A stretch of DNA of 56,657 nt from Plasmodiophora brassicae. Its lineage: Eukaryota. The notes beneath the pieces were generated by a model. It was not told the DNA's origin. It saw nothing but the letters and a program-made list of their open reading frames with translations, and did no database searches. The stretch is taken from positions 1,488,001 to 1,544,657 of the forward strand of contig CP145413.1 in the NCBI GenBank assembly GCA_036867785.1, written 5' to 3'. Every line of letters starts with the position of its first letter. Position 1 is the stretch's first letter. This document shows positions 3,116 through 56,657 of this stretch, piece by piece. Made by a program: the position numbers and the translations under genes.

Positions 3116-3351
3116 TGCGGGCGACTATGGCCCAGGGGCGGGCGAACGAGGAGAACAGGCTGACTTCTGATTACAGGAACAGACGTGCGGCAGGGTTGCG
3201 CTAGGCTGCGCCAGGTCGAACTTGCCCTGGGTCGTTCATTCGTGCCATGTCAGTCACCGACCCTTCGTTCTCCCAATCGTTCTGTGCGAAACGTAGACCG
3301 ACTCGACGGCAGGTCGCATGGTATACGCCGACCCGCTGGCGCCGGTTAAGC

Positions 3352-11023: not shown

Positions 11024-11220
11024 TGTTCATCCAGAGTACCAGTACTCAGATGATGCTGCTCAGATGCTGCTGCCACCCGGTCACATGATCATGACCGTAC
11101 TCGACCCCGCAGCGGCCCTTGCTGTGACGATCCTGTCCAAATACATCAGTTCGTTATATCACCAGGCGCCGACTCTTGCGACCGACCGCCCCCGTAGTGG
11201 GCAGCGGCGGCGTTAGCACA
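11024..11220 (+). repeat. 5' LTR
   Basis: TGTTCATCC...GTTAGCACA, apparently identical to 16163-16359. Confidence 0.97.
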
Positions 11221-11263
11221 GAAGCTTCTTGCGCAAAGAGCCCCAAGCAAACGAACTCACTTA

Positions 11264-14200: not shown

Positions 14201-16153
14201 GGTGAGCAACACCACGAACCTTTGTCGTTCATCTCGGGGACATTCCGTGGTTCTCAATTGAAGTGGGCGACCATTGAGAAGGAGGCCTACGCCATCATTG
14301 AAGGCTGCTATCGCCTCAGACACTTCATCTCTATGTCAAAGCTGGCACTTCGAATCTTCACAGACCACCGTAATTTGGTTTTCATTCTGAACCCAGCCTC
14401 GGTTGCACGAATTAGTCGGACGACCGGCGATCGCTTGGAGCGCTGGCGACTTCAGATTATCGACCTAGATTTTCACATTGAGCACATTGCTGGGGAGGAC
14501 AACGTTTGGGCCGACCTCGCCACGCGGTGGGGCGTCGCCCTGCAACCACTCTCCTCATTTTCCCCTCCATCGTTCCGTTCTATTCGTCATATGGCAATTA
14601 ATCTTGACTTCGACGATTACAAGATGACCGATGAGTTTATCTGGCCGTCTGTCGACGAGATTAGTAACGCTCAGACCGACTACATTCGCCAACACGACCT
14701 ATCTGCCGTTTCCGATATTCTCCAACTCGAAGGGGACATGTCTCTCCACCTTAGCCCGGAATCTGGCTGGCGTACTCCAGACAATCAACTCTGGGTACCA
14801 TCACATGCACTGCAGCTACGCATCGCAGTGATTTCACATATGGGACTGTCTGGTCATCAACCTGCTGCATCGACTATTTCGAGCATCGCACAACTCTTCT
14901 GGTGGCCTGATCTGGATTCCTTTGTTCGTGCATTTGTGGACAAATGCTTACACTGCCTACGCAACAAAGATTCGATGATTCCCCGACCTTTTGGCACGGC
15001 TATGCATGCGGACAAGCCCAATAAGGTCATCCACTATGACTTTCTGTTCTTATCCAAACCTCGTCCAGGCGATTCTCATCAACTTCGTTATGTTCTGGTT
15101 CTGAAGGACGACGCCACGGCATTCGTCGAGTTAATTCCTTGTCAATTCGCGGATCACAGCGTTGTCGCCGAATCTCTTCTGGATTGGTTCAAACGTTTCG
15201 GCATTGTTTTCCAACATGTCTCTGACCGCGGCACACACTTCAAAAACGCGGTTATCGCCGAGCTTAATAGCCGGTTACACTGCAACCATCATTTCACAAC
15301 TGCCTACACACCTTGGGCGAACGGCACGGTTGAGGTTGTCAACAAGCGGCTTCTCTTCCTGCTGAAGTCCCTCCTCTCCGAGCTAAATCTTCCATTCCAG
15401 GATTGGCCGTATGTCCTTCCGCTGATCAACATGACGGTAAATCACACTGTTCGATCAAGTGTGGGCTACGCGCCTGTCACGATGTTTACGGGTTTGCCAC
15501 CCTCGACACCTATCTCGATTATCTTCAACAAACGCATCGACGCGGTTATCGACGTGCCGTTGACCCCTGACCGTCTCAAGGAAATGACGACGGAACTTAT
15601 CGATTCTCTCGAGGACATGCACAAAGCAGTGGCACGTACACGCACCCATCTACGTGATCTCAAGCAACGCGCCCGGCGTCGCCGACGCAATGTTCGCGAG
15701 ATCAACTTCACGACGGGCGACTATGTTCTCGTGGCCAACCATGGCAAGCACTCCAAGTCCGAGTACAACTGGACTGGACCTGCCCAGATTATCGACACCA
15801 TCAACGACTGGGTGTATCGAGTTCGAGATCTCTTGACTGATCGTATCTCAGATGTACACGCCCAGCGCTTAATGTTCTATGCAGATGCGCACTTGAATGT
15901 CACCTCTTCCCTGAAGCACAACATCGCGCTCACCGGCGTGGCTTACCAAGTCAACGCAGTCGAGGACATTCGAGTCAATTCTACGTCAGGTGACACTGAA
16001 CTACTGATCAACTGGATCGGATTCGATGCCACCGACAATTCATGGGAACCTTACTCGGTCATGGCGGCCGATGTTCCTGATATCGTCAGGGCCTTCCTCG
16101 AACGACACGCCGAAGGAGACTCGCTCTGCTCACGACTGTTAGCAGATTTCTAA
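11264..16153 (+). CDS. Gag-Pol polyprotein (Zn knuckle, protease, RT, RNase H, integrase, chromodomain)
   Basis: CLICKEQHWVQVC knuckle, ADSGA protease, FDAFKGYWQ and LWIDD in RT, DAS/EKE/TDH in RNase H, HHCC plus SDRGTHF integrase, and C-terminal LINWIGFDATDNSWEP chromodomain. Domain order PR-RT-RH-IN. Confidence 0.97.
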   Translation: MAGGGRRAPVRLQMEDDARTNSDAEAKEHESSTDDEIDRGLQSTNLHGKSPIFMPLKPPILRTLSLTAKDGINDFLKKYRKHVEIVNERRLIYKEDIHPPTVKSCITEDVLKGMSKYRLRQPASTITDGDIMSYLRSVQRREADVESSTDIKALLTKTVVMNLSIKSIEERVTSFFAKFDELIDDYGLQDTYAKGTKGTKRKIKVLRGGIRPTDLAVLVERAIEFGGCRDAEKDELKFFDLVDRLAKEQDKHFRLQAEKKKSPAQTMSPPAGKKGKDVVAPNRNGGKHPTNPIGLKTAQSSTSQTKDESRDIPEHIRKRFEGKDPPKAGCLICKEQHWVQVCPKATQGERKAAIEKFQKERKEKEESKGNADTAKRMGPPSPSTPSPMRLRFQNSLDLPFEADSGATKTVISQSQLLRIQAIQHVPVKVFDHPTEAKLATIGATTTIVATAIVDITIVPPSHGKPAHLRGREINVCREDLSDDIVLLGAPELDALGINPATQLKEMLIEANGPIIIEADPTPERHAPGGQGITMRAVRHPEVSGTTRDHEPQLDTNDPGDDYDVEIGEHSDTDVDRAIDRMIQRATDSGFPNDQVPRLRTTVNRHKDIWRTKLGRDPPAKVSPLKLHFKADARPVRCRTRRYTLEHQKFMDDHVGTLAENDFVYRNPHSRYASPCLVVDKKDTEVRGHRLTVDINEAVNKQTERIAWPMPHIDIILTYLRSATIFMLFDAFKGYWQFPLHPDSQEACSFMTHIATFTPRRIIQGIADCVFAFQAGMQQVLGKLLYICALLWIDDILGYVSGFGAYMDTLESLLNAFDEFGVKLNPDRCQLYLTSVTWCGRVISADGVSFDRSYLNALHDLSTPITAADLQQFLSGLNWVRSVIPQFAAHVHPLQDLLLSASRSVSSLKKSHLRRVRLADIGWTTDHLTSFNSLKHRLSEAMTLAHTKDEWIMCLFPDASDRFWSVFLSQIPPEDIDLPYGEQHHEPLSFISGTFRGSQLKWATIEKEAYAIIEGCYRLRHFISMSKLALRIFTDHRNLVFILNPASVARISRTTGDRLERWRLQIIDLDFHIEHIAGEDNVWADLATRWGVALQPLSSFSPPSFRSIRHMAINLDFDDYKMTDEFIWPSVDEISNAQTDYIRQHDLSAVSDILQLEGDMSLHLSPESGWRTPDNQLWVPSHALQLRIAVISHMGLSGHQPAASTISSIAQLFWWPDLDSFVRAFVDKCLHCLRNKDSMIPRPFGTAMHADKPNKVIHYDFLFLSKPRPGDSHQLRYVLVLKDDATAFVELIPCQFADHSVVAESLLDWFKRFGIVFQHVSDRGTHFKNAVIAELNSRLHCNHHFTTAYTPWANGTVEVVNKRLLFLLKSLLSELNLPFQDWPYVLPLINMTVNHTVRSSVGYAPVTMFTGLPPSTPISIIFNKRIDAVIDVPLTPDRLKEMTTELIDSLEDMHKAVARTRTHLRDLKQRARRRRRNVREINFTTGDYVLVANHGKHSKSEYNWTGPAQIIDTINDWVYRVRDLLTDRISDVHAQRLMFYADAHLNVTSSLKHNIALTGVAYQVNAVEDIRVNSTSGDTELLINWIGFDATDNSWEPYSVMAADVPDIVRAFLERHAEGDSLCSRLLADF

Positions 16154-34192: not shown

Positions 34193-35307
34193 CTACATAG
34201 GTGTTGTTGTAGTGACCTGGATGATCCATTGCTGTGCCTGCTGTGCAACCTCGGCGGTCACCGCCCTTATGAACGAGTGCCCTAACAATTGATCGGCAGT
34301 GGCGCGTTGTCCCGGGTCTTTCTGCGTGCACTGGTCGATGAACGATCGGAACTCAGGCGACGTTGTCTCGGCAGGTAACGACGGCACGTCGCCCGACGTA
34401 ATTTCCGTCATGAGCGCCAGGTACTCGCCGGCATTCGGATACGGGTATCGGCCCAGCGCGCACTCCATGATGGTGATACCCAGGCTCCAGATATCGGACG
34501 GGAACGAATAGTCCTCGCCAATGATTCGTTCAGGACTGTACGCGCAGACCACGTCAGCGTATCCCCATAGACCAATCCGCGCAAGCGCAACCTCATGTAC
34601 GTGCATGTGCCAACGAACGTGGTGGCGACAGCGTTCTCCGGCAGTTCCGTGCTAATGCCAAAGTCGGTGATCTTGGGCCTGGCGTCCCGCGTCAGCAGTA
34701 TGTTCGATGGCTTGATGTCCCGGTGGACCATATGCCTCGCGTTATGCAGGTACTGCAGCGCCAGCAGGACCTGCTTGGAAAGATATGCGCAGACGATCTC
34801 CGGCAGACCATGACCATCATGCTGCTGTTGACGTCGACGCACGCTGGCGAGCAGGTCGACAAGCGACCCGAGCTGCATATGCTCCAGGACGATATAGATG
34901 CTGCCATGGTCGTAGAACGCACCGTAGAAGTTGACCAGGTGTTCGCAGTCGGCCTCGTAAAGCGTCTGCAATTCCTTGACCAGCGAGCGCCGCTGGTCCT
35001 TGTCGAAGATGCTGATCTGCTTGACGGCCAGGTTCAGGCCGGACGTGTGGTGCAGGGCGCGATGGACGACGCCCGTGGATCCGCGACCCAGCTGCTCCTG
35101 CAGGTCCAGCTCGCCGATATCCTTGATGAGGACGCCCGACGACGCCTGGCTAGCCGGGCTGGCCACCGGCTGCGACCCCGAGTCCCGGTACACGCCCGAC
35201 CGGTCGATATGCAGGTTGCCCGTCGTGAAGATCGTGTCTGACGCCTTGAACGAATCGTCCGGCTTGACGGGAACATCCACTGTCAGGCGCGGCTTGCCCG
35301 ACGTCAT
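34193..35307 (-). CDS. MAP kinase kinase (STE7 family)
   Basis: LGRGSTGVV, AVKQI, HRDIKPSN, DFG, TFVGTCTYM|SPERI and SDIWSLG, with one intron near 34540-34593. Confidence 0.92.
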
Positions 35308-35631
35308 GGATGGGAACCTCCCTGTCCGGCGTGCCACACGACAAGCGTCAGATGCGGCCGGCGCAGTCCGCCGCCGCGTCTCGGCTCGAACCGCGACCCT
35401 CCCCGCGTCAACAAACAACCACCACCTGGCACGAGCGCAACGACCCGGCTCAGAGCAAACACCAACGCCGGACGCCCGCACGCGCGTCGATTTCGCGAAT
35501 GACACGTGGATACGCCCGCGGAGCTGGGCTCGTTCACTCGCTCCAGATATACAATCCTTAAAATAGGAATGGACCATGCGGGGTCCGCAGCGACCGAAAG
35601 GGTTTACACACAGGTGACACATCGGCGACCG

Positions 35632-37534
35632 TCACGTGATGACCGTCGGCTCGGTGCGCTTCGTCAGCGCAGCGATATCGCTGAGGCGCAGGGCAATGTC
35701 GACGAGTGGTTTAAGCGCGTCCGCCGTCGCTTGATCCAGGTGGGCCGGGCGGCTCTCGTAGCGCTCCATGTAGATTCGGATCGTAGCACCGACAGACCCT
35801 GTAGCGATTCCGTCAGCATACAGGCCGTCGGGTATCGTGAGCGACCAAGACATGCGAGTGTCCTACCAGTGCCGCTCAGACGATAGATGATGCGTGACCC
35901 GTCCGTGAACAGGAACCGGACGCCCTGTTGACGGGTGACGCTGCCGTCGACGGGATCCTTGTACTCGAACTCGTCCGCGACATCAAGCGCGAACTCGCCA
36001 TAGTCCGTGCCGACATGTGGCTTGGCGATAAGCTGGCGCAGGCGGGCAAAGACGCGGTCGGCCGCTTGGCTCTCGACGCCCTCGTAATCGTATCGCGAGT
36101 AGTAGTTGCGCCCGTATTCGGCCCAATGCGCACGAACGACATCGGCGACGGAGCGGCGCTGCCCATCGCGATTGTTGAACTCCATGATCGACAACCAGGC
36201 CAGCACGGCCCACATGCCGTCCTTTTCGCGAATGTGGTCGGACCCGGTCCCGAAGCTCTCCTCGCCACAGATCCCGATCCGCCCGGAATCCATCAGGTTG
36301 CAGAAGAACTTCCACCCGGTCGGCACCTCGTAGATCGGGATGCCCAGCTGCTTGGCGACGCGATCAACGGCGGATGACGTTGGCATGGATCGAGCGACGC
36401 CGCGCAATGGGGTGCGGCAGTAGAACGGGATGGCCCCACGAGCGGCATGCGCGGCAATGATGGCTAAAGAATCGCTGGGTGTGACGAAGAACTCGCGACC
36501 CAAGACCATGTTCCGGTCCATGTCGCCGTCATTGGCGGCACCGAAATCAGGAATGGGTCCCTGTGCGGCGCCAGGCTGCAGGCCCATGCGTTGCACCAGC
36601 TCGGGAGCGTAGGTCAGGTTCGGATCCGGGTGCGCGCCGCCAAAGTCCTCTAGCGGTTTCTCCCGAACAACAGAGGAGCGCGGCAGGCCCAGCTCCTCAA
36701 CGAGGATCCGGACGGCGGTCGGTCCCGCAACGCCGTTCATGCTGTCATGCAGGACAGTGAACCGGGTGTCCTGAATGAACTTCTTGATCGCCGCGAAGTC
36801 GAAGATCGTCTTGAGTAGGCCGGCGTGGGCAGTAGGACCGTCCACCACCTCAACGGTGAACCCCGGCAGGATCTGCTGCTTACCAACCTATGGACATACG
36901 GGCGCAATCAGCGAACCGGATGGGCGCGTCCCGTGCGGGCAGTGTGTGACCTTGCCGGCATCGAACTCGGGCAGGTTGTGGACAGTCTTGAAATGACTGA
37001 TCTTACGCGACTTGGCAAACACGAGGTCGGTGAAGGACTCGGGGGCGGCACCGCCGTTGCCAACGTTGTACTTGACGCCGAAGTCGCCATCGGGACCGCC
37101 CGGGTTGTGGCTCGCCGTCAATATGATACCGCCCGTTGCCGAATGCGAGCGAATCAGGACGGAGACGGCCGGCGTCGACAGCAGGAAATCAATGCCGACG
37201 ATCACGTGCTTGTAGCCGTTCGCCGCCAGCATCTTGAGAATAATTTGGCAGGCCTGGCATGACAGATGCCTGGGTCAATAAAGCAACGGACATGGAAGGG
37301 CCGACCGCTGACCTGTTTGTTGAAATATCGCCCGTCGCCAGACAGGAGGATCGGTTTCGACTTGTCCAGGCCGGACGTGGTCTCCTCGACGGCGTCCAGG
37401 ATGGCCTGCACGAAGTTCTGCAGGTAGGTGCCCTTCTGGAACGTCGCCACTCGCTTGCGCAGGCCGCTCGTGCCCGGCCGCTGATCATCGTATGGGCCGT
37501 CGGCCTTGACGACGTCAACGGCGAGGTTGGACAT
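35632..37534 (-). CDS. PGM: Phosphoglucomutase, multi-exon
   Basis: [40 protein letters not shown] and terminal EPTVIT. Confidence 0.95.
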
Positions 37535-39756: not shown

Positions 39757-42700
39757 GCTGAAAGTAGGCGTCTCCGACTTGGACTACCGCCTGTGGCACC
39801 ACGTCCTGTACACAGGAGAAGTCAGATATTCCAAGGCATCCATCCATCGCCGTTGTCGGCCCTGTACCTACCACCGTCGTCTTGCGGCGCGCCACAGAAA
39901 CCGTCTGGCCATCGGGACCTGTCTCCTGGACAACTGCAATGGGATCTTGCCGCACCAGCATAACCTGGCCCTCTTCCACCTTCCCCTTCATCTGGCGCAG
40001 CGTCGTGCAGCGGTGCTCCACGTCCCATCCGGAATTGCACGGTCGTTCGGAGGAGCACCTTCTGGCGAGCGTCGTCGTGTGGTCACTGACAAGCGCATCG
40101 GCGAGGGTCGTCCGGCTCCGCGAACCACTCAACATAACAACCGGGAGCTCGCAGGGCGGGCGCCTAGAGGCATGGTCGCAGGTTGCGCAAGTGTCGACGA
40201 CGTGCTCAATGAACACAACAATCGATCTCTCGATCGGTTGACCATTGGCCCAGGTAACGGCGTACGCATCATCTGCTGCAACAGCTCCAGTGCGAAGTCG
40301 TCTGCGTCGTGTTGTTGTCCGGCATCGAACGACCTCGTCGCCAGGTCAGCCTCGCTGACGACCTTGCTGAGGTCCACCAGAGTATCGGACGCCACTTGCA
40401 GATCCAGACGTGGGTTCATCAGATGGTTGTACGTAGGGGTGAGCCCAAGGTGCGGGCCCGGAGACACATTGCCAGCCGGGCAAAGCCCGCATGATCTGGA
40501 TTGGTCCGATGGCGTAGCAAATATGGAACGACAGACGCCTGCCGCATCATTGTTCGAAATGCCCGCTGGCATCAACGATCTGGCGTCATGCTCCTAACAG
40601 CCCCGTTAGCGTCGACGATGCCGTTCAAGGCAGCGTCCCGTACCTGTGGAGCACGTTGCGCTTCTTCGATCAGTTCGCGGTCGACGTGTGGTACGGGCCG
40701 GCTTGCATGCTTGCCAGGAGATTGTTCGCCTTCCTGCGGACAACGCTAGCGCGTTAGACGTCGTCATCGCCTCCGTGCCGGCGTTGCCAATTTCGAACCT
40801 GATCTGGTGCCTTGAAAGAGCGGTCTGCAAGTCCAGCAGCAAATGTAGTGGCCCTCTTGTGTTGTGCCTACAGCGAGCGGACGGTCAGTAAAACAGGCCA
40901 TACGGGTACAATCATCACCGACCGGTGCACGCGGAATGCTGCGCTTGTCAGCAGGGTCCTTGATCACTGTCATCGGCGCAGGCGGCGGCGCTTTCTGCAA
41001 CGTCATGCCGGTTAATGATTACACCCAACCCGGTGTACGCTGTAGTAAACTGACCACAGGGCGTGTCTTTGTGGCACAACGCTTTGAAAGCTTGCCTGCT
41101 TGACAGTAAAGTTTGCTCTGCGTCACACACCCATCGTTAGCATACGTGTCTGCCAACACTGGCCTAAACAGTTACCTCGCTCTCTCGCGATGTCGACTGA
41201 CACAGGTCGTTTGTGTCTCTCGACGATTCATCGCGGTCGCTCTCCGTGCTTGACATAGAACGAGGTCAGCAGCGGCCTGTTGGCAGTGCAGTGATCAGTA
41301 CACCCATTCGTGCCCAGCCATTCAGTCAGCAACGAACGATTCGCCTGCGTTTGCCAGACGCGCGTCTCTGCAGTCTTGTGGCGCGCCGACTCGCCCGCGT
41401 GCGACGAGCAGGTCCATTGCCGTCGGCTGACGCGTCATCATCAATGTCCTTGTCCAGCTGGTCGGCCCGGTTGCCCCGGCGCTGGCGAATGGCAGCCACG
41501 TACGCGCCCACCATATCGTCGACGATGCCGCGAAACCTCGACGACGCTCCCTCAGTCATCGGCCTTGGTCGCGAGTCCAGGATGATCAGCTCGAACGCGT
41601 TTACGAAATATTCATGCGCGCGCTTCGAGCTCAGGCCGAGCTCGACGAGCGTGCGGCCCACAGCGCCGATCCGCGCTAGAGCGTGCTTATAAGGCGCGCC
41701 AATCGATGCGTGCAGCGCCGCACGTCTGCAACAGGTCGTCGATGACGATGACATGCTCAACGGGGTCACGAACGGCGTCGTGTCGACCGGCGCCGACGTA
41801 GGTCAGCACGCCGGGGCGCAGCGCACGTGAGTGATAGACGAGAATCAGAATAGTCGACAGGTCGACGGGAGGCGGCCACGCGTCCTTGACCGCCTTGACA
41901 GCGGCGTGCACCTGCGACGACAGCGTCTTGTGGTCCTTTGACAATTGCACGATGGAATCGACCGCCGCCGACTGGACGAGCAGGCCGTTGTGCGGGTCGG
42001 CCAGGAACGAGCCCCAGTCGATCTAATTGGTGCAAGCGCCCCGCGCGTCCGGCGACGAGTGTAGGACGCCCTGTATGAGGGCCAGCGCCTCCCACAGCCA
42101 GTGACGCTTCTTGCTGCCCTGATTGGCCAACGGCAGGGGTACGTCCTGCCAACTCTCGTACGCATCCAACAACGTGACTGACCGTGATGCCAGCGGCAAC
42201 GCGCTCAGAGTCATCGGGTCAGACGACGCTGGCAGACTCACCACAGCCGATGGATCGTGAAGTGGCGGGACCAACATGACGACATCCGCCAATACGGCCA
42301 GATAACACGACGACGGCACACAGCGTCCATCGGGGCGAGCACGCATCGCTCGACGCTGGGCGACGGTCTTGGTCGCAGACGCCATCAGATCGGACACATA
42401 CTCGTCGGTGATATTGACTGGCGGCGGGTCGACCAGCGTGACGAACGGATGGATGACGCGCCCCGACCAGCGTTGCAACAGCGTCACCTGGATACCATCG
42501 CCACCTAAACGCTCCCTTGTCCTCGCGACCCTGTTCACCAACGCCTGCATCACTCGCTTGTCATCGAAACGTGACTCTGGAATGATTGACATGAAGTCGC
42601 GCCACAGTGCACGGTGTGGCAACCGTTCGAGTTCGTTGCGATCCAGTTGGAAAAAGTGATGGTTGGCAGCAACGACAGCGACGGATCGAGCGTCGACCCA

Positions 42701-43107: not shown

Positions 43108-45755
43108 AACTTCTATTTGTATTTGTCAGATACAGCTAAAGCGTCGTGAGCTCGGCGGGAACGGACGTGAATAGGACAGGCTTGACTCGAGTGACAGGAT
43201 CGGCGGAGTGCGCAGCGTTCACGGCGGGCGCCATGAACGCGCGCGGCGCTCTATGTCGGCCGCACTGTGCCCGTCTAATGGCGACTGGACACGGCCGGGC
43301 GACGATGCAGGCGACGGCGCGTCGGGGCGCAGCGGCACACGAGCTTCATGCTGGGGTCCAGCGTCGGCTTCCGCCGGTCGCCCGGTCGCGTTGGCAATAC
43401 ATCTCATCACGATGGCCGTCATTATCGCCGTCGGCGAGAGATGGTGGGCGCGTCGACGAACTCGGGCATCGGCATCGATCTCTGGGCCGGCTATGTCCGC
43501 ACCGCCCAGGAACCCGACCAGTGCAGGGTCGTCGAGGACGTGTTCGGCGACTTCAACGGCGACTCGCGCGTTCTCGTTGTCCTCATCGTCGCTGATCTCG
43601 TTCCATAGCGTCGCGTCCAGGCCAGCAAGCGCAGCGACGCCCTGAGCGGAGATGGCGAGCGACTCGCCGCGGATGCAGCGGGCGGCAACGGCGCGGATGA
43701 ACGTGCCCAGGACGGCCAGCCAGCGTCGCTGGCGATCGCTCAGCCGAAACGTCGGGTCGCGCGGATCCGGCATGCGGCGCGGTCGTAGACGGTCGTCTTC
43801 TCTGGCGGGCGGCGCCGTCAGGCGTGCGTAATCGTTGAGCTGGATGGCGACGTAGTCGATGGCGACGCCCGTGTCCGCCCTGTTGAAGTGCAAGGCACGG
43901 ATGCGCCAGTCGATGATTGGCCTGAGCAGGCGCGACGATTCAGTGCAACGGGCAGCAATGTGATACCTCGAGAGGTTCTTGTCGTTGCACGCCCGGCACT
44001 GGGCGTTCGAGCCCGGTATGCGGTTCGTGACCCATGAAGCCACCGCATATGCGTCGTCGCCCGAGTGGTACGCCGCCGGAAACGGGAGGTTATACGGCTG
44101 TAGCTGCAGGCGCATCAGCTTGCAGGACGCATCAGCGGCAGCCCACGTGTGGAGCTCGAGCGCTTGCAGCAGGGCGTCTTGCCGATCGGGCAGGCGTGGG
44201 CGCTTCCGCGTCGGGCGGCCGGCTTCGGCGTCGGCGAGTTCTTCACGGGCGCGTTGCTCGCGGGCGTCACGGCCGTTCCTGTAGATGGCGGTTGCGTCCG
44301 CGTAGACCTTGCAGCCCTTCAGCATCATGTTGAATCGGCTGCGCGGGTTGCTGAGCGCCCAGCGCGTGACGCGGACCAGGAACGGGACGCGATCGCCATC
44401 CTTGATCTGCTCCGACCACGTGATCTGCTTGAACGCGAACCGGGCGCGCAGCTTGGCCTGGCGGGCAGCGGCGGGCACGAGTCCCGCGTACCGGAGCATC
44501 AGGGACGAGCCGATGCGGCGGCGGTATCCACCGAAGAACAGGGCGGCGGCCGACTTCTGCAGCTGGTCGAGCTTCTTCAGTAGGCCGACGTGGCTGTTGC
44601 TGATGGCGAGTCCGTACTCGGCGCGCGAACGGATCCAGGCGCCGACGACGCGCGTCTTCCGGACGATCGACAGGTGCTTCGTGCTGAACACGCCCGAGTG
44701 CATGATCCCGATCATGGCCTTCTCGGCTTTGGCTGTCCGCGAGGCGAGCTGGGCTCGATGATCGAGGCGACCATCCTTCATGACGACGCCCAGGAAGCAC
44801 ACCGGCTTGTCGAGCTCGTGCTCCTCGACGACGCGGTTGCCGCCGATGGTCAGGGCTGCCGGCTGCGCGGCGGTCGACGTCCTCGGCCTGGAGACGATCG
44901 ATTTCGTCGCGTTCCACTCGAGTTCGTGCCGCTGCGCGTACTCCTGACAGAGGTCCATCATGGCCTGGGCCATCTGGTCGGTGAAGGCGTGCAGCAGGGT
45001 GTCGTCGGCGTAGAACTGGCAGGGCACCGGCATGTGGTCGAACATCGGGGCCTCGTCGCCGAACCGCGACACGATCAGGTACGGCAGGTCGTCGATCAGG
45101 ACGTTGAATAAGTCAGGGGAGCCAATCGCGCCCTGGAATAGGCCGACGAGCGCGGCGATCCGCTCGGACAGCTGCCCGTCCAGAGCAATGATGAAATGGC
45201 AGCCGTCAAACAAGGCCTGCAGAACGGCGATGATATGTGCAGGTACGCCTCGTCTGCGTAGCTTTGAGTAGACATGAATGCGGCGGGCGCTATCATACGC
45301 CTTCCTCATGTCGAGGAGGACCTCGATCAGCGGCTTGCGTCGTGCCGCCCAGTGGGTGGTCAGCTCGTCGGCCACCCACACGGCTTCGGGGACACCGATG
45401 CCTCGCCGAAATCCAAACTGGAGGAAGTGCATCTGCAGCCACCCCTTCAGGTGCATGTACGTGATCAGACACGTCTCATATGCCTTCCGGAGGTGGGACT
45501 GCAGCGCAATGCCTCGCCAGTTCGACGGGTCGGCGGGTTCGGTGTTCCGTTTGTGCACGGGCACAACGAGCGCCGACCGCCAGTCAGACGGCACGAGCTG
45601 CACAGTGTACAAGCAGGTGAACATGCAGGATATCCAGGGGCCGGCGGCATCCGGGTCACACTTCAGGAGGTCCATCGGTATGTTGTCCGGGCCGACCCCC
45701 TTCATCCACTCATGCCGTTTGATGAGTTGACGGTGTGAACACGGTGTCCGATACC
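43108..45755 (-). mobile_element. 5'-truncated non-LTR retrotransposon
   Basis: RT ORF plus about 110 nt of 3' UTR, no poly(A), with telomere-like sequence on both sides. Confidence 0.85.
43219..45705 (-). CDS. Non-LTR reverse transcriptase with C-terminal CCHC knuckle (N-terminally truncated)
   Basis: KGVGPDNI, NWRGIAL, QFGFR, LDMRKAYDS, GLFQGAIGSP, catalytic FYADD, FLGV and CRACNDKNLSRYHIAARC. Confidence 0.92.
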   Translation of the reverse strand: MKGVGPDNIPMDLLKCDPDAAGPWISCMFTCLYTVQLVPSDWRSALVVPVHKRNTEPADPSNWRGIALQSHLRKAYETCLITYMHLKGWLQMHFLQFGFRRGIGVPEAVWVADELTTHWAARRKPLIEVLLDMRKAYDSARRIHVYSKLRRRGVPAHIIAVLQALFDGCHFIIALDGQLSERIAALVGLFQGAIGSPDLFNVLIDDLPYLIVSRFGDEAPMFDHMPVPCQFYADDTLLHAFTDQMAQAMMDLCQEYAQRHELEWNATKSIVSRPRTSTAAQPAALTIGGNRVVEEHELDKPVCFLGVVMKDGRLDHRAQLASRTAKAEKAMIGIMHSGVFSTKHLSIVRKTRVVGAWIRSRAEYGLAISNSHVGLLKKLDQLQKSAAALFFGGYRRRIGSSLMLRYAGLVPAAARQAKLRARFAFKQITWSEQIKDGDRVPFLVRVTRWALSNPRSRFNMMLKGCKVYADATAIYRNGRDAREQRAREELADAEAGRPTRKRPRLPDRQDALLQALELHTWAAADASCKLMRLQLQPYNLPFPAAYHSGDDAYAVASWVTNRIPGSNAQCRACNDKNLSRYHIAARCTESSRLLRPIIDWRIRALHFNRADTGVAIDYVAIQLNDYARLTAPPAREDDRLRPRRMPDPRDPTFRLSDRQRRWLAVLGTFIRAVAARCIRGESLAISAQGVAALAGLDATLWNEISDDEDNENARVAVEVAEHVLDDPALVGFLGGADIAGPEIDADARVRRRAHHLSPTAIMTAIVMRCIANATGRPAEADAGPQHEARVPLRPDAPSPASSPGRVQSPLDGHSAADIERRARSWRPP

Positions 45756-45801
45756 TTTAGGGAATGATTTAGGGGGGGTGGGGGGGGGTCCAAAATGGAC
45801 C
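45756..45801 (+). repeat. Telomere-like/G-rich junction with hairpin
   Basis: TTTAGGG AATGA TTTAGGG, then G-runs, then the GGTCCA-AAA-TGGACC inverted repeat. Confidence 0.6.
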
Positions 45802-49726: not shown

Positions 49727-51221
49727 TTATGAACGGATACCATTGCATCTGTAGAAGAGCAGCCTGTAGACGCGCTTGTGGAGCAGGCTAGCCACTTGGG
49801 ACTCTCCATACCGCACTAGGCGATTGGTGTCGCAGAAGACCCAGGAACCACCGGGTTGCTTGACCCAGGATATATAATGCCCTTCATCGTGCCCAGCCAA
49901 TTGGGTGTCACTACCCTGGTAATCGACCAGGCCAACGAGATCGAAGTACGCTCTGCCAGTCTGAAACGTCACTTCTGGCACCACGTCCTGCCCACAGGAG
50001 ATATCAGACATCCAAGAGATCCACCCATCATCATCGCTTGATGTCCTGCACCTACCACCGTGGTCCTACGACGCGCCATGCTGATCTGCGCTCCGTCAGG
50101 GCCGGGTTGCTGGACGATCTCCATCGGATCCTGCCGAACAATCAACAGTGACCCCGGCGTTGGACTCCTGGCCATGTGGCGGAACGTTGTCGACCGGTGC
50201 TCGACATCGTGACCAGGTTGGCAGGGAACGTTGGAGGTGCACCTCCTGGTGATCGTCTCCGACTGCTCCCCGACCAGAACCGTTGAGAGTTTGACTCGCC
50301 GGTGGCAGCCCTGCAGCATGACGACGGGCTGCTGACAAGGCGGGCGCGACGAGGCATGGCCGCAGGTGGCACACGTATCAACCACGTGTTCGACGAACTC
50401 GACGAGACTGCCAACAATCGGCTGTCCATCAGCGCCCACCATACGGTATGCCTCCATCTGCGATAGCAGTTCCAGGACGAAGTCGTCTGCGTCGTGCTGA
50501 TGTCCGGCAGGAAACGACCGTGTCGCCCGGTCGGCGTTGCCCAGGCTGCTGATGAGCTCAACGAGCGCGTACGACGCCACGTTCGCATCCAGGCGGGGGT
50601 TCATCACCTGGTTGAACAGGCCCACCCAGGGCGCGTCGCCCGACACGCGGTGCCATCCAGGCAAACGACGCAGGATATGGACCGGTGCAATGGCGAAGCA
50701 AATCTGCCGGCAGACGCCGGCCGCATCCACGTTCGATATGCCCGCTGGAAGTAGCGTGTCAGCACCACACTCCTGAACGTCAACTTCAGCAGCGTCGATG
50801 ACAATTGGATCGCGTTTCGTACCTGCGCAGGAGGTTCCGACCCTTGGGCGGGATCGCTGTGGGCGATTCGTTCGGTGCGGCTCGAACGGTCGACAGCAGG
50901 TCGTTCGTGGACCTGCAGTTATTGCACGCATGTCAGCTGTCTCCCTCGCCACAGTACCGGCGTTGGCAATTGGCAAACCTGTCTGCGCTTCCTCGCTGGG
51001 CGTTTCGCGAGGAGAGCCACTTGAACCCTCCTCCGCTTGCAAGTAAGCTTGGGTGCCTGCAATGTCACGGGGGTTCAGTCTACACCCCGCTCGCAATACC
51101 TTCTAACCCAAATCACCCTGTACTCCGACGACCTGGAGGACGACTCGCAAACGTCGTTCGTGTCCTGGGACGGTGCGTCGCTGTCGTCGTCGCTCGACAT
51201 CGGGTCCACATCCATCGTACT
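49727..51221 (-). CDS. Ubiquitin-specific protease-like (peptidase C19) domain, spliced
   Basis: Cys box GISN...QICFAIA, QHDADDF, CATC Zn ligands and His box GHYISWVK..W..CD. The GTAGGT..CAG intron at 49988-50055 joins the two ORFs in frame. Confidence 0.8.
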
Positions 51222-51241
51222 CTGTTCAGGCCCACAGTGGA

Positions 51242-54200
51242 TCAGCAGGATTGCACAATCAAGGCGAATATCATCAGTACACGTACAGTTCGTCGGCACC
51301 TGATTGCCGACCGGTTCTGCAGTAGTGCTGCCCGCCGACTGGTTACTGTCCTGCGTACGGGGCGGCGCTCGTCACCGGCGTCGTCTCCTGCACCGCCGTC
51401 CTCAGATCCGTTGGCACCGGCAACGTCGATGCCGCTTCGCCGCCTTCGGACGGCGTCCAGGTACATCGGCACAAGCCGGGCAACGAGCGACGCGATCCGC
51501 TCAACGACGACATCGTTCTGGCGCCTCGACGTCAGGACGATGAGTTCGATCGCCACCAGCAAGACGTCGTAGGTGTGCTTCGTCGCGCACCAGACCTCGT
51601 TGAGCTTGGCGCCGACAGCGCCGATCAGCATGAGTTCGTGGGCGAAGTCGTCCCACTCAACCGCGCCTGCGTCCAGCGACCTGAGGACCGCCGACATGTC
51701 GACGACGTGGTCATCGCCGTCCCGCTCGTCAGCGTTCCTCTTCTCACCCACGTACGTCAACACTCGTCGACCGAGGCCGCGCGCATGGAAGATCATAAGG
51801 ATGATCCTCTGCTGCAGGCCCCACTTGGACAGGTCCACGGGTGACGGCCACAGACCAGACACGCTCTTGACGAGTTTGCTGACCTGCGTCGACATCTGCC
51901 GGGGCGACTTCGACAGTTCAATCGTGTCGTCGACGCAGGGCCTCTGAACCAGCACCGCGTTGTGTGGATCGCCCAGGAACCCGTCCCAATCGACCAAGAC
52001 CGGGGTGCCTTTCCCGTCCTTCCTCGAATGCATCACGCCCATGATCAGGGCCATGGCTTCCCACGGCCAATGCCGGCGATGCTTGTTCCCGTGGAAGGCG
52101 GACGGCAGCGGCAGCTCCGCCCACGACCCTTGAGCCTGCGCCAGGGTGACCGACCGCGACGACAGCGGGACCTTGCTGATCTGCAGCGATCCAGCTGACG
52201 TCAACGGTACGATCAGGTCGGGATCACAGAGTGGCGGGACCAGCATGACGACCTGCTGGAGGATGTTCTTGAACTCGGCGGTAGGCACCCATCGACCCGC
52301 CGGACGCTGGCGCAGTGCACGACGCTGGGCCGGGCTGCTGTCGCCGGACGCCATGAGCATGCGGAGATAGGCGTCGGTGACTCGCTCCGGAGGCGCATCA
52401 ACAAGGACGACGGGAGGATGTACGACACGGCCATCCCAGCGTAGACGCAACGACACGTGAATGACATCACGCCCCAGGGCTCGGCGCCTGCCTTGTACCC
52501 TCGTCACCAACGCGCGCATGACGTCGGCCTCTCGGAAACGACTAAGCGGCACGATGGACATGACGTCACGCCAGAGCGCTACGTGCGGCAGCGTGTCCAC
52601 GCCGGGCGACATCCAATTGAATGCCACCCACTCGGCGAACGTGATGTGTTGCATCGACGCGACTGAGGGGTCCAGCACGGATCCAGGGCTCGCCAGGCGA
52701 TGCAGGGCGGCCGGTGACGGAAGGAACGACTTGAACAGATAGTCGTAGTCCTGGTCGAGGTCTGGGCGATCAAGCGCATGGCTGACGTACGGCGCGAGGA
52801 CCTTCCTGGACCGCAGCTGGTCGAACGCGTACGCGCCCTCTGTCTGAAGCAGGTTGAGCGCCACAGCGGCTGGCGTCAACATGTCCGAGAGCATCGACGA
52901 TAACGTTCGAAACCAGGAGCGGACCAGGTAGGTCAACGCATGCCGGCACCCCTTAACCGAAATCCGAAGGATCGTCGACATCACGTCGGCGTTGTCGAAC
53001 CCATGGATAAAGTTCAGGAACTGGCCCTCGTGAATGCGCAGGTTTAAGGGGTCCATGAAAGCTGGATCGATGAACACCCTGCCGGCCGACATGCAGAAAT
53101 TGACGTAATCCAGGCGCGTCCCGGGCGACATCCACACGCCGACATTGCTGTCAGGGGTACCGCCCTGGAAGAACCGGCTTGCCGAGATGAACGAACCGTC
53201 GAGCAGTGCGTTCAGCAGGTCCTCCATGAACTGCAGGCAGTTCATCTGCCGCCGATCAATGTTCGTGACGAACGGTGATCGGCGCCCGCCCTCGATGGGT
53301 CGGAACATGGCCCGATACATCAGACGGGGGAAGTGGGCGTACTGCTCATGTTTCCGCAGAAGATGGGCCCAGAAGTCGTGCGCCGCGATGCACAGGATCG
53401 TGTCGTCGTCGTTCAGGTGGGCAACTTCGCGCCACATCGACTGGAACACAGCGCCGCGCATCGACAGGTTTGCGATGTACTCGCAGCGGTGAACGACGGG
53501 GACCCTTTCGCGCATCATCTGGCGGCACCATCGTATTCTCTGCGTCATCGACCTGTGAACCGGCTTGAGGGCTCGCTTCACGTCCGTCTTGCGGATCGGC
53601 CCGTACTTCCTCAGAGACCGCGGCAACGAAGCGATGAATTTACGAGTGTTACCGCGATCGAAAGACGCCCGCACACAGGCGCTGAATGTGGCCAGGTGCG
53701 AGTAGCGCACAGGCGCCGCCAGTATTCGTGATCGATCTCTTGTGCGTTGAGACACTGTCGCATTGTACGCTGATCTCGCTGAAGCCATTGTCGAGCCGCA
53801 CCGCGTTTTACATCCCCCAAACGCGGCAACCTCACCGATCGGGTAATAGGAGTGGGATCGCGCAGGAGCGCCGCGGTTGGCGTCTCGGTCGCGTAGAGCG
53901 CTGTAGTCGCGACAGACGGCCACAGGTGTCTGATCCGGAAACGGCTCAGCGGCCACGTTGCTGCCAATGTCAAACCGGCCGCAGTCAACGATCGCGGTCG
54001 GCCAGAACGTTCGGAGGTAGTGGCGCTGCTCCAGGATCGAGCCGACGTTGTCCATCCTCGTAAATGATCGAACGCCCAACGATTGCATCAGAACCATCGT
54101 CGAGTCCTGCAGGTACAATGCCAGTGTGTCCAGCATGGTTCGCGCGTCTCGCGGCGCGAACCGTACAGGACGCTTGTGGTTGTTGTACTGCTGGCTGTAG

Positions 54201-55174
54201 TCGACGAGTTCGTCGGGAAGTCGATCAGAGCACGCGGCGATGGCCTCGCTGACTGCGGCGCGGCAGGAACTGGAGAAGCCGCGTCGTGTCGAGTGACGAC
54301 TCGTACTCACCAGGAACAACGTGATCGTGGCCATTGGCGAGCAATACACTTCACCGAGGAGGAACATGGGAAACTTGGTTATCGGCGTTGGACGCGGTTC
54401 GCCTTCCAGCTGCACCCGAAGGTCGTGAAATGTGCTCCCGTTGACCGCTTGGCGGCCAGCGTGCCGTCCCCAGGCTGTCATCAAGTGCAGCGACGTGAAC
54501 GCCGTTGCCCTCTCGAGCGGGAAGACCTGAAGCCATCGCTGGAACGACGTACAAATGGCCTGAAGCGAATCGACGTCCATGGTCTGGAGAATGTCGGGCA
54601 CGCCGCCATGCCTCTCAGACGCTGCGCGTGCCTCGGCTGAAACATCGAAGCGGTACTTGCCAGAGAAGCAGTCGGCTTTCGGTAGCCCATGCTGTGTCCA
54701 GAACAGGTCACCAGCGAAGTCTTGCAGACTAATCGTCTCAAACGCGCTGCAGTCAGTATGCGGTTGGCTTCCCCTTGTCAACTGCTTTTCTTCCGATTCA
54801 GCCAAGAGGGCGAAGGACGGATCCGCGCCATAAGGGTTACCTAACCCGACCTGGCCGTCATCGGACGCAGCAGCATCGTCTTCCGAAGAAACCGTGCCAG
54901 ATGAGTCCGACGAAGGCGCTCCATCGCGGTCGTCATCACCTTGAGCGGTGGCCCTCCTTGAATTGTCTTCAGGTACGCGGACGCTGCCACCAGCGTCGTC
55001 ACCGTCTTCCGCTTCGACATCGACTTCGTCGGCTGCGGCCAGCTTCTGCCGTTCCCGGATATCGCGAAGATAATCAAACGTTGTTCGCGAGAAGGAGTCG
55101 GAACTAACAGCATCATCGTCGCTGTCTCGGTTCGTGTTGCACAGGCCGACGGGAACCCCGGAAGAGTCACACAT
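51242..55174 (-). CDS. 1310-aa protein of unknown function
   Basis: Long uninterrupted ORF with an acidic N-terminus. Its coding status is supported by amino-acid-level conservation with the paralog at 41.3-43.1 kb. Confidence 0.8.
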   Translation of the reverse strand: MCDSSGVPVGLCNTNRDSDDDAVSSDSFSRTTFDYLRDIRERQKLAAADEVDVEAEDGDDAGGSVRVPEDNSRRATAQGDDDRDGAPSSDSSGTVSSEDDAAASDDGQVGLGNPYGADPSFALLAESEEKQLTRGSQPHTDCSAFETISLQDFAGDLFWTQHGLPKADCFSGKYRFDVSAEARAASERHGGVPDILQTMDVDSLQAICTSFQRWLQVFPLERATAFTSLHLMTAWGRHAGRQAVNGSTFHDLRVQLEGEPRPTPITKFPMFLLGEVYCSPMATITLFLVSTSRHSTRRGFSSSCRAAVSEAIAACSDRLPDELVDYSQQYNNHKRPVRFAPRDARTMLDTLALYLQDSTMVLMQSLGVRSFTRMDNVGSILEQRHYLRTFWPTAIVDCGRFDIGSNVAAEPFPDQTPVAVCRDYSALRDRDANRGAPARSHSYYPIGEVAAFGGCKTRCGSTMASARSAYNATVSQRTRDRSRILAAPVRYSHLATFSACVRASFDRGNTRKFIASLPRSLRKYGPIRKTDVKRALKPVHRSMTQRIRWCRQMMRERVPVVHRCEYIANLSMRGAVFQSMWREVAHLNDDDTILCIAAHDFWAHLLRKHEQYAHFPRLMYRAMFRPIEGGRRSPFVTNIDRRQMNCLQFMEDLLNALLDGSFISASRFFQGGTPDSNVGVWMSPGTRLDYVNFCMSAGRVFIDPAFMDPLNLRIHEGQFLNFIHGFDNADVMSTILRISVKGCRHALTYLVRSWFRTLSSMLSDMLTPAAVALNLLQTEGAYAFDQLRSRKVLAPYVSHALDRPDLDQDYDYLFKSFLPSPAALHRLASPGSVLDPSVASMQHITFAEWVAFNWMSPGVDTLPHVALWRDVMSIVPLSRFREADVMRALVTRVQGRRRALGRDVIHVSLRLRWDGRVVHPPVVLVDAPPERVTDAYLRMLMASGDSSPAQRRALRQRPAGRWVPTAEFKNILQQVVMLVPPLCDPDLIVPLTSAGSLQISKVPLSSRSVTLAQAQGSWAELPLPSAFHGNKHRRHWPWEAMALIMGVMHSRKDGKGTPVLVDWDGFLGDPHNAVLVQRPCVDDTIELSKSPRQMSTQVSKLVKSVSGLWPSPVDLSKWGLQQRIILMIFHARGLGRRVLTYVGEKRNADERDGDDHVVDMSAVLRSLDAGAVEWDDFAHELMLIGAVGAKLNEVWCATKHTYDVLLVAIELIVLTSRRQNDVVVERIASLVARLVPMYLDAVRRRRSGIDVAGANGSEDGGAGDDAGDERRPVRRTVTSRRAALLQNRSAIRCRRTVRVLMIFALIVQSC

Positions 55175-55175
55175 C

Positions 55176-55219
55176 AGGTTTTTTAGGGTTTTTTAGGTTA
55201 GGGTTAGGGTTTTAGGGTT
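55176..55219 (+). repeat. Interstitial variant telomeric tract
   Basis: AGG T6AGGG T6AGG TTAGGG TTAGGG T4AGGG TT, with the same polarity as the terminal telomere. Confidence 0.93.
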
Positions 55220-55225
55220 CGTTCG

Positions 55226-55369
55226 TCGGCATGCCCAACGCGACCACGACCAGGAATGGCGGACACCCGCGCACTGCGGCGAGCTGCATGGTGCAGCTCC
55301 TTATGTCCCACCACCCCTTGGCGGCCCTGGTTTCGCCTTCGGCTCATCAGGTTATCGCGTTGGTGCCGT
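55226..55369 (-). ncRNA. Type I hammerhead ribozyme
   Basis: Stem I CCAACGCGAUAAC/GUGGUCGCGUUGG, core CUGAUGA (55350-55344), stem II GCC-GAA-GGC, GAAA, stem III CCAGG/CCUGG, cleavage triplet GUC (55250-55248). Confidence 0.88.
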
Positions 55370-56384
55370 CCCGGCGAATGTTGTCATTCCCGGGCTTTTC
55401 CCTGCCGGACCTGTGCGTCCTTTCGGTGAATGTCATCCCATCGGCGGCGTGATGCGGCCGTGGGGTATCAACTGATTTAACATCATTGGATTGTCGATTG
55501 CAGCGTGGGCGGCCGCCTGCCCTGCTGTATTTGCCATTAATTATGCGTTTGCACGCGCTGTTGGCTATGTCGATCGTTGATCTGCCTCTTGCGGCAGTCA
55601 GCGTCGTGTTATATTTGTCTAGGACGTGCTGGAAATTCGTTTGCAAGAAGTTCCATCGTGTGTCGGCGCCTCTGTGGGGCCGCACACTGAAGAAGTTCGT
55701 GCTGATCTTCTCCGTCTTTTCCATTAGCCATGCTCGGTCTGTGAACTGATATGGCGTTTTCGATCTGATGATCTTACTGGAGTATCCACGTCTCCTTAGT
55801 TGCTTCCTGAATTTCCCCATTTCTGCAATGAAGGTCTTTCTATCCGCGGTCCCTCGCAGGATGCGAATATTCTCTCCAGTAATCCACGAACATTTCGTTA
55901 GCTCTGGCTTGAATGTCGTGTAGTGGTTGAAGCATTTGTTATTCGTTGGCTTAGTGTATGGTTTGAAATCCAGTAAGCCGAGCGTAGCGTAACGGCGTCC
56001 TTTGTAGATGGTGAGATCTAGAAAGTTCACTGTGCTCCCCATTTGTTCGATGTTGAACTGCAGTGTGCCGTACGATGATAGGTGTCTGGTGAGTGCTTTC
56101 ACCTTCGCTATCTTTTCAGTGGCAATGATTGTGTCGTCTCTGTACCGGCGGTACAGGTATGGCTTGAGGTGGGGGTGCTTCCTCCATGCTTCCTCTTCCA
56201 TTGCTGCCACGACTAGGTCGGCAAAGACGCCTGAGACGTTGCTTCCCATGGCGGCGCCTTGCACCTGTTTGTACCAGGTGTCGCCGTATACGAAGTAGTT
56301 GTTCTGTAGTACCCATTGTAGGACGTCTAGTATGAGTTTGTGGCACGGGATGTGCCCTCGTTCGAGCAGTGGTTCGATGAGTTC
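55347..56384 (-). CDS. Penelope-like reverse transcriptase (partial, open at the 5' end)
   Basis: The frame extends upstream of the listed ORF (LQWVLQNNYFVYGDTWYKQVQGAAMGS). It includes catalytic YRRYRDD, NFLDLTI, PYTKPT and the thumb motif LRRRGYS. Confidence 0.92.
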   Translation of the reverse strand, partial: ELIEPLLERGHIPCHKLILDVLQWVLQNNYFVYGDTWYKQVQGAAMGSNVSGVFADLVVAAMEEEAWRKHPHLKPYLYRRYRDDTIIATEKIAKVKALTRHLSSYGTLQFNIEQMGSTVNFLDLTIYKGRRYATLGLLDFKPYTKPTNNKCFNHYTTFKPELTKCSWITGENIRILRGTADRKTFIAEMGKFRKQLRRRGYSSKIIRSKTPYQFTDRAWLMEKTEKISTNFFSVRPHRGADTRWNFLQTNFQHVLDKYNTTLTAARGRSTIDIANSACKRIINGKYSRAGGRPRCNRQSNDVKSVDTPRPHHAADGMTFTERTHRSGREKPGNDNIRRDGTNAIT

Positions 56385-56657
56385 TTAGGGCTTAGGGTTT
56401 TTAGGGTTAGGGTTTTAGGGTTTTTTTAGGGCTTAGGGTTTTTTTAGGGTTTTTTAGGGCTTAGGGTTTTTTAGGGTTTTTTAGGGTTTTAGGGTTTTAG
56501 GGTTTTAGGGTTTTAGGGTTTTAGGGTTTTAGGGTTTTAGGGTTTTAGGGTTTTAGGGTTTTAGGGTTTTAGGGTTTTAGGGTTTTAGGGTTTTAGGGTT
56601 TTAGGGTTTTAGGGTTTTAGGGTTTTAGGGTTTTAGGGTTTTAGGGTTTTAGGGTTT
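56385..56657 (+). repeat. Telomere (TTTTAGGG)n with proximal variant repeats
   Basis: Variant T2-7AGGG and CTTAGGG units to about 56486, then regular TTTTAGGG to the end of the window. Confidence 0.98.

Follow-up and report, generated by a model that had tools for sequence, protein, structure and literature searches.

Among retroelements, the closest relatives of telomerase are the endonuclease-less Penelope-like elements (EN- PLEs), and the way in which they prepare their RNA and prime its copying at chromosome ends is described by a model, not by a demonstrated mechanism. A stretch of 56,657 nucleotides of Plasmodiophora brassicae (contig CP145413.1, positions 1,488,001 to 1,544,657; referred to as the window in its whole length) holds a member of a clade that is relevant to this question. 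Near its right end, a truncated PLE reverse transcriptase (RT) frame lies between telomeric repeats and a sequence resembling a hammerhead ribozyme (HHR). The question raised by this locus is whether that sequence is a ribozyme maintained together with the element, and what it would do at a chromosome end. We consider it about 70% probable that it is a genuine, evolutionarily maintained type I hammerhead, which forms the 3'-terminal module of an EN- PLE attaching to chromosome ends; this reading is based on sequence comparison and predicted folds.

A type I hammerhead at the end of the reverse transcriptase frame

All ribozyme positions given here are read on the minus strand, in window coordinates. 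In agreement with the initial annotation, which had proposed a complete type I hammerhead on this strand, positions 55368-55227 contain every invariant HHR nucleotide and all three helices, with the predicted scissile bond at 55248/55247. The 5' strand of stem I (55351..55368) is also the last six codons of the open reading frame (ORF). It is followed by the catalytic core C3-A9, CUGAUGA (55344..55350), and by stem II (55335..55343), which is predicted to fold into 3 bp, GCC/GGC, with a GAA triloop and is closed, directly after the core, by the G10.1-C11.1 pair. The core nucleotides G12-A13-A14 (55332..55334), which are invariant across the elements compared below, lead into the 5' strand of helix IIIa, A15.1-CCAGG (ACCAGG, 55326..55331), and this strand pairs with CCUGGU at 55254-55249. 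The 3' strand of helix IIIa together with C17 occupies 55248..55254, and the 3' strand of stem I, as found by the pairing scan and the fold, occupies 55227..55247 with 13 positions and an extension. The A15.1-U16.1 pair is A55331-U55249, C55248 is the non-G nucleotide H17, and the cleavage site is predicted to be GUC, with cleavage after C17. Helix I is open and helices II and III are closed, which is the type I connectivity; the core, the G12-A13-A14/A15.1-U16.1/H17 set and the three-helix layout all agree with membership of this type.

The initial description is correct except for the number of stop codons and the distance to the telomeric tract, and several details can be made more precise. 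Stem I had been given as about 13 bp with a further extension. The extension is present in the predicted fold (5 bp, CGGCA/UGCCG, beyond a 3-nt loop), and 12 of the 13 positions counted from the core are paired with 55247-55235, with one G.U and one A.G mismatch. The stop codon of the RT had been placed on the UGA of the core. It does lie there, but the ORF end reads ACC UGA UGA, and both core triplets, U4G5A6 and U7G8A9, are in-frame stops. The insert of helix III, described as about 70 nt of further structure, is a structured stretch of 71 nt (55255..55325) with a 10-nt 5' bulge, an optional helix IIIb (GGUGGUGG/CCGCCAUU) and two hairpins. The hairpins that had been named are predicted both in the minimum free energy (MFE) fold and in the hammerhead-competent fold. 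The insert is not a peculiarity of this copy, since it represents the short 3' untranslated region (3'UTR) of the element, whose length differs among relatives. The 3' strand of helix III, the GUC and the 3' strand of stem I sit directly ahead of a C-rich tract whose sequence is reverse-complementary to the telomere.

Conservation of the 5' half in related elements

The conservation and covariation check proposed in the initial annotation was carried out on metagenome relatives and supports the ribozyme. A metagenome scan gave 407 pattern matches, which led to four loci (L001-L004). Exact-pattern scans for the conserved 5' half, CCUGAUGAGC-N-NAA-N-GCGAAAC-N-AGG, gave no match in genome contigs and none in viral contigs. 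The window holds only one core match. All four loci carry the hammerhead core pattern, with five matches in total: L001, L002 and L003 represent one family (L002a), L004 represents another, and a third is found as an additional 5'-truncated copy on L002 (L002b, protein P0016).

The element proteins are only about 45-48% identical, yet the 5' half is kept in four of four elements (window, L002a, L002b and L004). The four distinct 5' halves align through the core without gaps. Of the 70 columns of this alignment (A3), 30 do not vary; almost all of these fall in the block that begins with CC-CUGAUGA, includes stem II and GAAAC and ends with AGG. The coding sequence just upstream of the core is poorly conserved. 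The CUGAUGA core and G12-A13-A14 are invariant in all four elements, and the ORF stops on both core UGAs in three of them (window, L002a and L004). Pair 3 of stem II is C-G in three elements and A-U in L002b (GCC/GGC versus GCA/UGC).

The 3' halves and covariation of the stems

A region of 1200-1500 nt downstream of each 5' half was scanned for the 3' partner, which consists of the helix III 3' strand, U, a non-G and the stem I complement. A complete HHR was found in each of the three elements with available downstream DNA, i.e. the window, the L001/L002/L003 family and L004. In every case the best 3' partner lies just before a telomeric tract or a tandem junction, and none of 1000 shuffles matched it. 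In the window the partner scores 19, and the maximum in dinucleotide shuffles of the 1200 nt downstream was 16 (0/1000 equal). The 5' half pattern on its own is weak evidence, with one match in the window against 0.16 expected and at least one match in 16 of 100 shuffles. The 144-nt region as a whole folds with -76.0 kcal/mol (z = -4.1), and none of 200 shuffles folds as well.

The best partner of L002a is located 816 nt past A15.1 and 21 nt ahead of a long CCCTAAA/CCCTAAAA tract. The ends of L004 overlap by about 126 nt (1-127 versus 3230-3355), giving a unit of 3228 nt, and this contig may be either an assembly-collapsed tandem array or a circular DNA form of the element. Its 3' half lies at L004:140-170, across the end overlap and 33 nt before the ATG of the next copy. 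Candidates sought at the contig end itself were poor and were discarded, as the real partner spans the tandem or circular overlap. The first part of L002 and of L003 is the 3' half of a copy lying upstream; after it come 15 nt of degenerate telomere-like sequence and the ATG of a full-length copy, and the same copy-copy junction is seen in L001. At the tandem junctions the cleavage site is situated 33-36 nt ahead of the next ATG. The elements are thus found both head-to-tail and adjoining true telomeric repeats.

The helix III insert corresponds to the whole 3'UTR, with a length of 71 nt in the window, 326 nt in L004 and 804 nt in L002a. Stem I pairs at 12 of 13 positions in each of the three complete HHRs. 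At its position 6 the window has G-C where the other two have A-U, and position 12 is C-G, G-C and G-U across the three, both being compensatory; positions 2, 4, 8, 9 and 11 show one-sided changes with pairing kept via G.U. Helix IIIa is nearly invariant, and its single C-to-U change, in L004, keeps a G.U pair. Helix IIIb is formed by 7-8 bp of unrelated sequences (GGUGGUGG/CCGCCAUU, AUGAGUU/AGCUCAU and GAAGUCCG/CGGACUUC), and position 17 is C in the window, U in L002a and U in L004, never G. The comparison covers three complete examples and one partial one and is not a statistical covariation test; within this scope, the pairing changes are what one would expect if a ribozyme had been maintained, and not what a chance resemblance would give.

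In each element, helices IIIa and IIIb are separated by a CG-rich bulge of 9-10 nt on the 5' side: UCGCGCGA, which is self-complementary, at L002 3004-3013, UCGCGCGGG at L004 3043-3051, and GCCGCCAAGG at 55325-55316 on the minus strand of the window. From its sequence, this bulge could be a dimerisation or protein-binding site. Telomere-like repeats were also noticed within the 3'UTRs of the relatives, hence within helix III; they are G-rich at L002 3034-3060 and C-rich at L004 3278-3305 and 50-75.

Identity of the host element

The ORF that ends in the core (55347..56384, minus strand) encodes 345 amino acids (aa) plus stop of a 5'-truncated EN- PLE reverse transcriptase and starts directly at the telomeric repeats. 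Pfam gave no match on the 345-aa fragment, and the protein searches identified one identical protein (P0001) and relatives of 600-940 aa at 44-49% identity. P0001 covers only positions 456-798 of the 803 profile positions, so that the N-terminal part is absent. The alignment of the relatives shows a nearly invariant D-K-N-x-G block, mostly ADKNAGLT, before which the window copy is truncated, as well as the RT motifs (R-Y-R-D-D among them) and a thumb-like region that is conserved; RVT_1 was detected in several full-length relatives. The ORF ends about 100 aa past the conserved thumb region. No GIY-YIG domain was found in the window ORF or in its close relatives. Among distant matches, GIY-YIG-like C-termini were recognised by eye in P0012 and as a weak Pfam GIY-YIG match in P0015 (E 0.047, below the cut-off).

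The DKN motif, the thumb and the missing endonuclease are defining features of EN- PLEs (PMC13159263, PMC8557442; statements on published work refer, here and below, to the parts of the cited papers that were available). Since the relatives combine these three features, we regard the window copy as a 5'-truncated, telomerase-capped fragment of an EN- PLE. The PLE identity first proposed therefore stands on the full-length relatives (DKN..G, RVT_1, no GIY-YIG), whereas the window copy itself is only a 5'-truncated fragment which, being devoid of the N-terminal half of the RT, is a dead-on-arrival insertion. The assignment is one by motifs and domains.

A search with the clade profile matched 26,292 cluster representatives at E<=0.001, of which 2,988 reached E<=1e-30. 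In the ESM Atlas, the nearest clusters consist of eukaryotic HTH_animal/DUF8422/RVT_1 proteins, most often from Basidiomycota and Rotifera; we take this as a lead only. The same profile had no match to PDB sequences at E<=0.01, and hence no direct tie to TERT structures. The C-terminal peptide encoded by the 5' strand of stem I recurs in the family: the strict motif [AG]T[ND]A[VIML][TA] is present in three of 161 proteins (P0001, P0008 and P0010), and close variants were found by eye among 70 C-termini in P0017, P0019 and P0023.

Telomeric context

The terminal telomere, (TTTTAGGG)n on the plus strand, occupies 56385..56657 and runs off the window, with 22 of 23 pattern matches at 56407-56654 and 19 copies at 8-nt spacing. 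Viewed on the minus strand it is (CCCTAAAA)n, the C-strand of a TTTTAGGG telomere, whose G-strand leaves the right end in the 5'-3' direction. The repeats near the junction are variants, CTTAGGG and TTTTTTAGGG. The TTTTAGGG repeat has been reported for Chlamydomonas (PMC9940879), and the hosts of the clade carry TTTTAGGG or TTTAGGG telomeres.

Downstream of the ribozyme, an internal 40-nt C-rich tract of irregular CCCTAAAA-type repeats (55178..55217, minus strand) is followed by unrelated sequence. This is the telomeric tract that had been placed 28 nt from the cleavage site. The tract is present, but its first CCCTAAAA (55217) begins at a distance of 30 nt, and 28 nt is obtained only if the preceding AA is counted as part of the repeat. 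The tract is either an older chromosome-end remnant or the telomere-complementary tail of the template. Between 56385 and 56480, variant repeats (CCCTAAG, CCCTAAAAAA and CCCTAA) precede the point at which the terminal array turns into a perfect 8-mer, and the repeat variants in the internal tract at 55178-55217 are of the same kinds.

The 5' end of the element faces the telomere and its 3' end the centromere, and the element is 5'-truncated and re-capped by telomeric repeats. A 3' end pointing to the centromere is the published orientation of EN- PLEs (PMC13159263). The terminal site, the centromere-pointing ORF, the 5' truncation with a telomeric cap and the reverse-complement tract after the HHR are all present in the window, and likewise in L002 and L003.

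A possible role at chromosome ends

EN- PLEs are reported to attach to exposed G-rich overhangs via a short reverse-complement telomeric stretch directly downstream of the HHR, and HHR cleavage is viewed as an auxiliary pre-processing of the template (PMC6431247, PMC8557442). Following the published Athena/Coprina/Terminon model, the C-rich tail of the RNA would anneal to the G-rich telomeric overhang and so prime reverse transcription, and the folded hammerhead would present this tail to the overhang. Self-cleavage, predicted to occur after C17, would cut read-through or tandem transcripts at unit boundaries; this step is suggested by the tandem arrays of the relatives, whose organization seems to fit a role in transcript processing. 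The 3' strand of stem I, the spacer and the tract are kept in genomic copies, which implies that the RNA that was copied was either uncleaved or still joined through the 12-13 bp of stem I. To terminate on U4-A9, a ribosome would have to unwind stem I and cover stem II, and translation and ribozyme folding would therefore be mutually exclusive on any one molecule, an exclusion that we infer from the overlap of the two features. The initial annotation had proposed that the ribozyme processes read-through subtelomeric transcripts and that translation termination may influence its cleavage. With the RT of the window copy truncated, only transcripts that come in from the telomere side could be substrates of its ribozyme, as that annotation suggested.

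Self-cleavage of the window ribozyme in vitro seems to us rather more likely than its failure. This estimate takes into account that PLE hammerheads of fungi and protists are without recognisable tertiary contacts, yet the one from Serpula lacrymans cleaves as a monomer; these HHRs are of type I with a large helix III (PMC4209133).

Observations that weigh against a maintained, active ribozyme

A number of results speak against the reading preferred here. The search with Rfam hammerhead models, proposed as a check in the initial annotation, found nothing at the gathering score in the whole window, and at E<=10 no hammerhead was found within 55100-55500 (401 nt), where the sole match was Acido-Lenti-1 (E 4.5). 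The silence of Rfam probably comes from the 71-nt insert at a place where the type I model expects a short helix III hairpin; with no Rfam match, the support for the ribozyme is comparative. Moreover, no loop-loop or bulge-loop contact between helices I and II is recognisable, the loop of stem II being 3 nt long, and stem II is minimal (3 bp with a triloop). The A.G mismatch of the window stem I, at position 3, is not kept in the relatives.

The predicted folds add to these points. For the window sequence, the hammerhead-competent fold has -70.4 kcal/mol (-68.6 kcal/mol with helix IIIb enforced), so that the active fold is 5.6 kcal/mol less stable than the competing MFE fold. In the latter, CCUG of the core region (C2.1 to G5) is paired to CAGG in the 5' strand of helix III. 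This CCUG/CAGG hairpin is also the predicted fold of four of four isolated 5' halves, at 55322-55372 (minus strand) in the window, at 2957-3007 and 6095-6145 in L002 and at 2996-3046 in L004, with 4, 6, 8 and 5 bp. It is also present in the MFE fold of the 885-nt ribozyme region of L002a, where none of 12 stem I pairs and none of 6 helix III pairs is in the hammerhead register, the halves still pairing over a long range. The competing hairpin may explain why the helix IIIa sequence is near-invariant while stem I covaries. Such a hairpin would prevent the core from acting before synthesis of the distant 3' strand.

L002b, a 5'-truncated EN- PLE of another family that directly follows a telomeric tract (L002 3878-6241; 6117-6136), departs from the common organization in two respects. 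The frame called for it does not stop at the core, which it reads as CCU GAU GAG, and runs on for 40 codons; the frame with stops in the core is open for only about 13 codons. No 3' half was found in the available L002 sequence. Either this copy has undergone a frameshift or it represents a real variant. In addition, there are only three independent complete examples and, as these are related, part of the conservation is inherited. Finally, HHR cleavage was dispensable for insertion by one endonuclease-bearing (EN+) PLE in vitro (PMC11167929).

Alternative explanations

Several of these observations would be accommodated if the hammerhead-shaped fold were a structural handle only, which positions the telomere-complementary tail and/or serves recognition by the RT at the end of translation, with self-cleavage negligible or irrelevant in vivo. 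Besides the minimal stem II, the lack of evident tertiary contacts and the competing fold more stable by 5.6 kcal/mol, the genomic copies (window, L002 and L003) hold sequence past the cleavage site, so that the RNA from which they were copied carried or retained the 3' product; and the insertion of the Poseidon PLE in vitro was unaffected by HHR catalytic mutants (PMC11167929). A handle, however, would not need every catalytic nucleotide, i.e. C3, G5, A6, G8, A9, G12, A13, A14 and a non-G at position 17. These are invariant in four of four 5' halves, position 17 is C, U and U in the three 3' halves, and a related fungal PLE HHR does cleave (PMC4209133). We consider this explanation unlikely, at perhaps the level at which it should still be kept in mind.

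Another possibility, which we rate as improbable, is a permuted ribozyme gated by translation. Here a terminating ribosome would keep the core unfolded, and, once it has been released, cleavage at two successive units of a tandem transcript would yield a unit RNA, as a nicked or religated circle. The 5' end of this unit RNA (stem I 3' strand and telomere seed) would re-pair with its 3' end (core and helix III), the telomere overhang would prime on the seed, and the RT would cross the junction using the circle as a template, with the CCUG/CAGG hairpin as the off-state. The stop codons within the core and the coding nature of stem I suit this scheme, and so do the tandem junctions, where 33-36 nt with nothing but a degenerate telomere-like seed separate the cleavage site from the next ATG, and the 12-13 bp of stem I, which would keep the cleavage products together. 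The genomic order of tract, spacer, stem I, helix III and ORF is what a junction-crossing template would be expected to give, and circular RNAs have been published from HHR-bearing retrozymes linked to PLEs (10.64898/2026.07.22.740005, PMC7229834). The same DNA order is nevertheless explained more simply by an uncleaved 3' end, and L002b does not stop on the core.

That the resemblance arose by chance, with CUGAUGA present only for its stop codons and the helices as fortuitous pairings in a GC-rich (52-68%) window, is hardly credible: the silence of Rfam and the frequency of the 5' half pattern in shuffled windows (16/100) would allow it, but the 3' partner occurs in 0/1000 shuffles for each of the three elements, and the arrangement recurs in relatives with covarying stems and inserts from 71 to 804 nt.

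Comparison with known hammerheads

The preferred reading, a maintained hammerhead at the 3' end of an EN- PLE, was compared with systems described in the available parts of the literature. The HHRs known from telomere-associated EN- PLEs in fungi and in protists (Cervera and de la Pena 2014, PMC4209133) share the type I topology, the large helix III, the telomeric EN- PLE host and helices I and II that vary in size and show no recognisable tertiary contacts. As far as the texts can be compared, the elements described here differ in that the core also serves as two in-frame stops and the 3'UTR lies entirely within helix III, where it reaches 804 nt in a relative. As helix III encloses the whole 3'UTR, the ribozyme is discontinuous.

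The Athena/Terminon elements of bdelloid rotifers (Arkhipova et al. 2017, via PMC6431247 and PMC8557442) have the same 3' order, with an HHR followed by a short C-rich telomere-complementary tract, and likewise show telomere-capped 5' truncation, head-to-tail arrays and centromere-pointing ORFs. In contrast to what is available on them, the present elements are associated with a CCCTAAAA-type telomere repeat, have a single compact ORF (about 870-990 aa in relatives), overlap the ribozyme with the stop codon and place a 3'UTR of variable length inside helix III. The HHR of the Anolis Poseidon PLE (PAc; Frangieh et al. 2024, PMC11167929) also overlaps the coding sequence, with core residues beside a translation signal. 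According to the available text, however, it overlaps the start codon, belongs to an EN+ element and needs protein to cleave, and its cleavage is dispensable in vitro.

The discontinuous HHR of the mammalian Clec2 3'UTR (Martick et al. 2008, via PMC2950038) shares the long loop insert between the two halves, the 3'UTR site and the escape from motif searches, but is, in the account consulted, a regulator of a host mRNA with neither a stop-codon overlap nor a telomeric context. Retrozymes and HHR circular RNAs (PMC5680766, PMC7229834, 10.64898/2026.07.22.740005) share type I or III HHRs at the boundaries of tandem units, where double cleavage gives unit-length RNA; as described there, retrozymes are non-coding and non-autonomous.

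HHRs in PLEs, variants with a large helix III, and the module of an HHR with a telomeric tract are already published. In open-access text we found no description of a core formed by conserved tandem RT stop codons, of a helix III enclosing an entire 3'UTR (71-804 nt), or of an EN- PLE in a host with TTTTAGGG telomeres, and no paper on EN- PLEs in green algae. The clade represents a compact case of three to four kilobases: one ORF stops in the ribozyme core, and the ribozyme encloses the 3'UTR and adjoins the telomere seed. It offers constructs with which the importance of cleavage, folding or translation termination for terminal retrotransposition could be examined. HHRs whose helix III holds inserts of hundreds of nt are missed by Rfam and by standard descriptors, and their number may therefore be underestimated.

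Other features of the window

The older sequence that received the PLE is represented by a 1316-aa open frame (51242..55192, minus strand), which starts inside the internal tract and is not part of the ribozyme. Pfam assigned no family to this frame. It looks as though telomere addition had healed an older sequence truncated at its 5' end. Some parts of the frame are found again, at 73-84% identity, about 10 kb further in (40270-42283 versus 50455-52252), in the repeat families D2, D8 and D9, and this recurrence suggests a large repeated unit.

An 845-aa ORF with RVT_1 (43219-45756, minus strand) was considered as a second PLE with its own ribozyme and rejected. It belongs to a non-LTR (long terminal repeat) retrotransposon, its best PDB matches being R2 and LINE-1 ORF2 proteins, and this LINE-like RT is unrelated to the clade. 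A 1651-aa polyprotein with RT, RNase H, integrase and chromodomain (11198-16153, plus strand) represents a Ty3/gypsy-type, chromovirus-like LTR element and sits in a stretch of lower GC content (52-56%). Two adjacent 407-aa open frames (34408-36887, minus strand), of which one contains phosphoglucomutase domains II, III and C-terminal and the other a protein kinase domain, sit 20 kb from the chromosome end and are probably exons or fragments of host genes.

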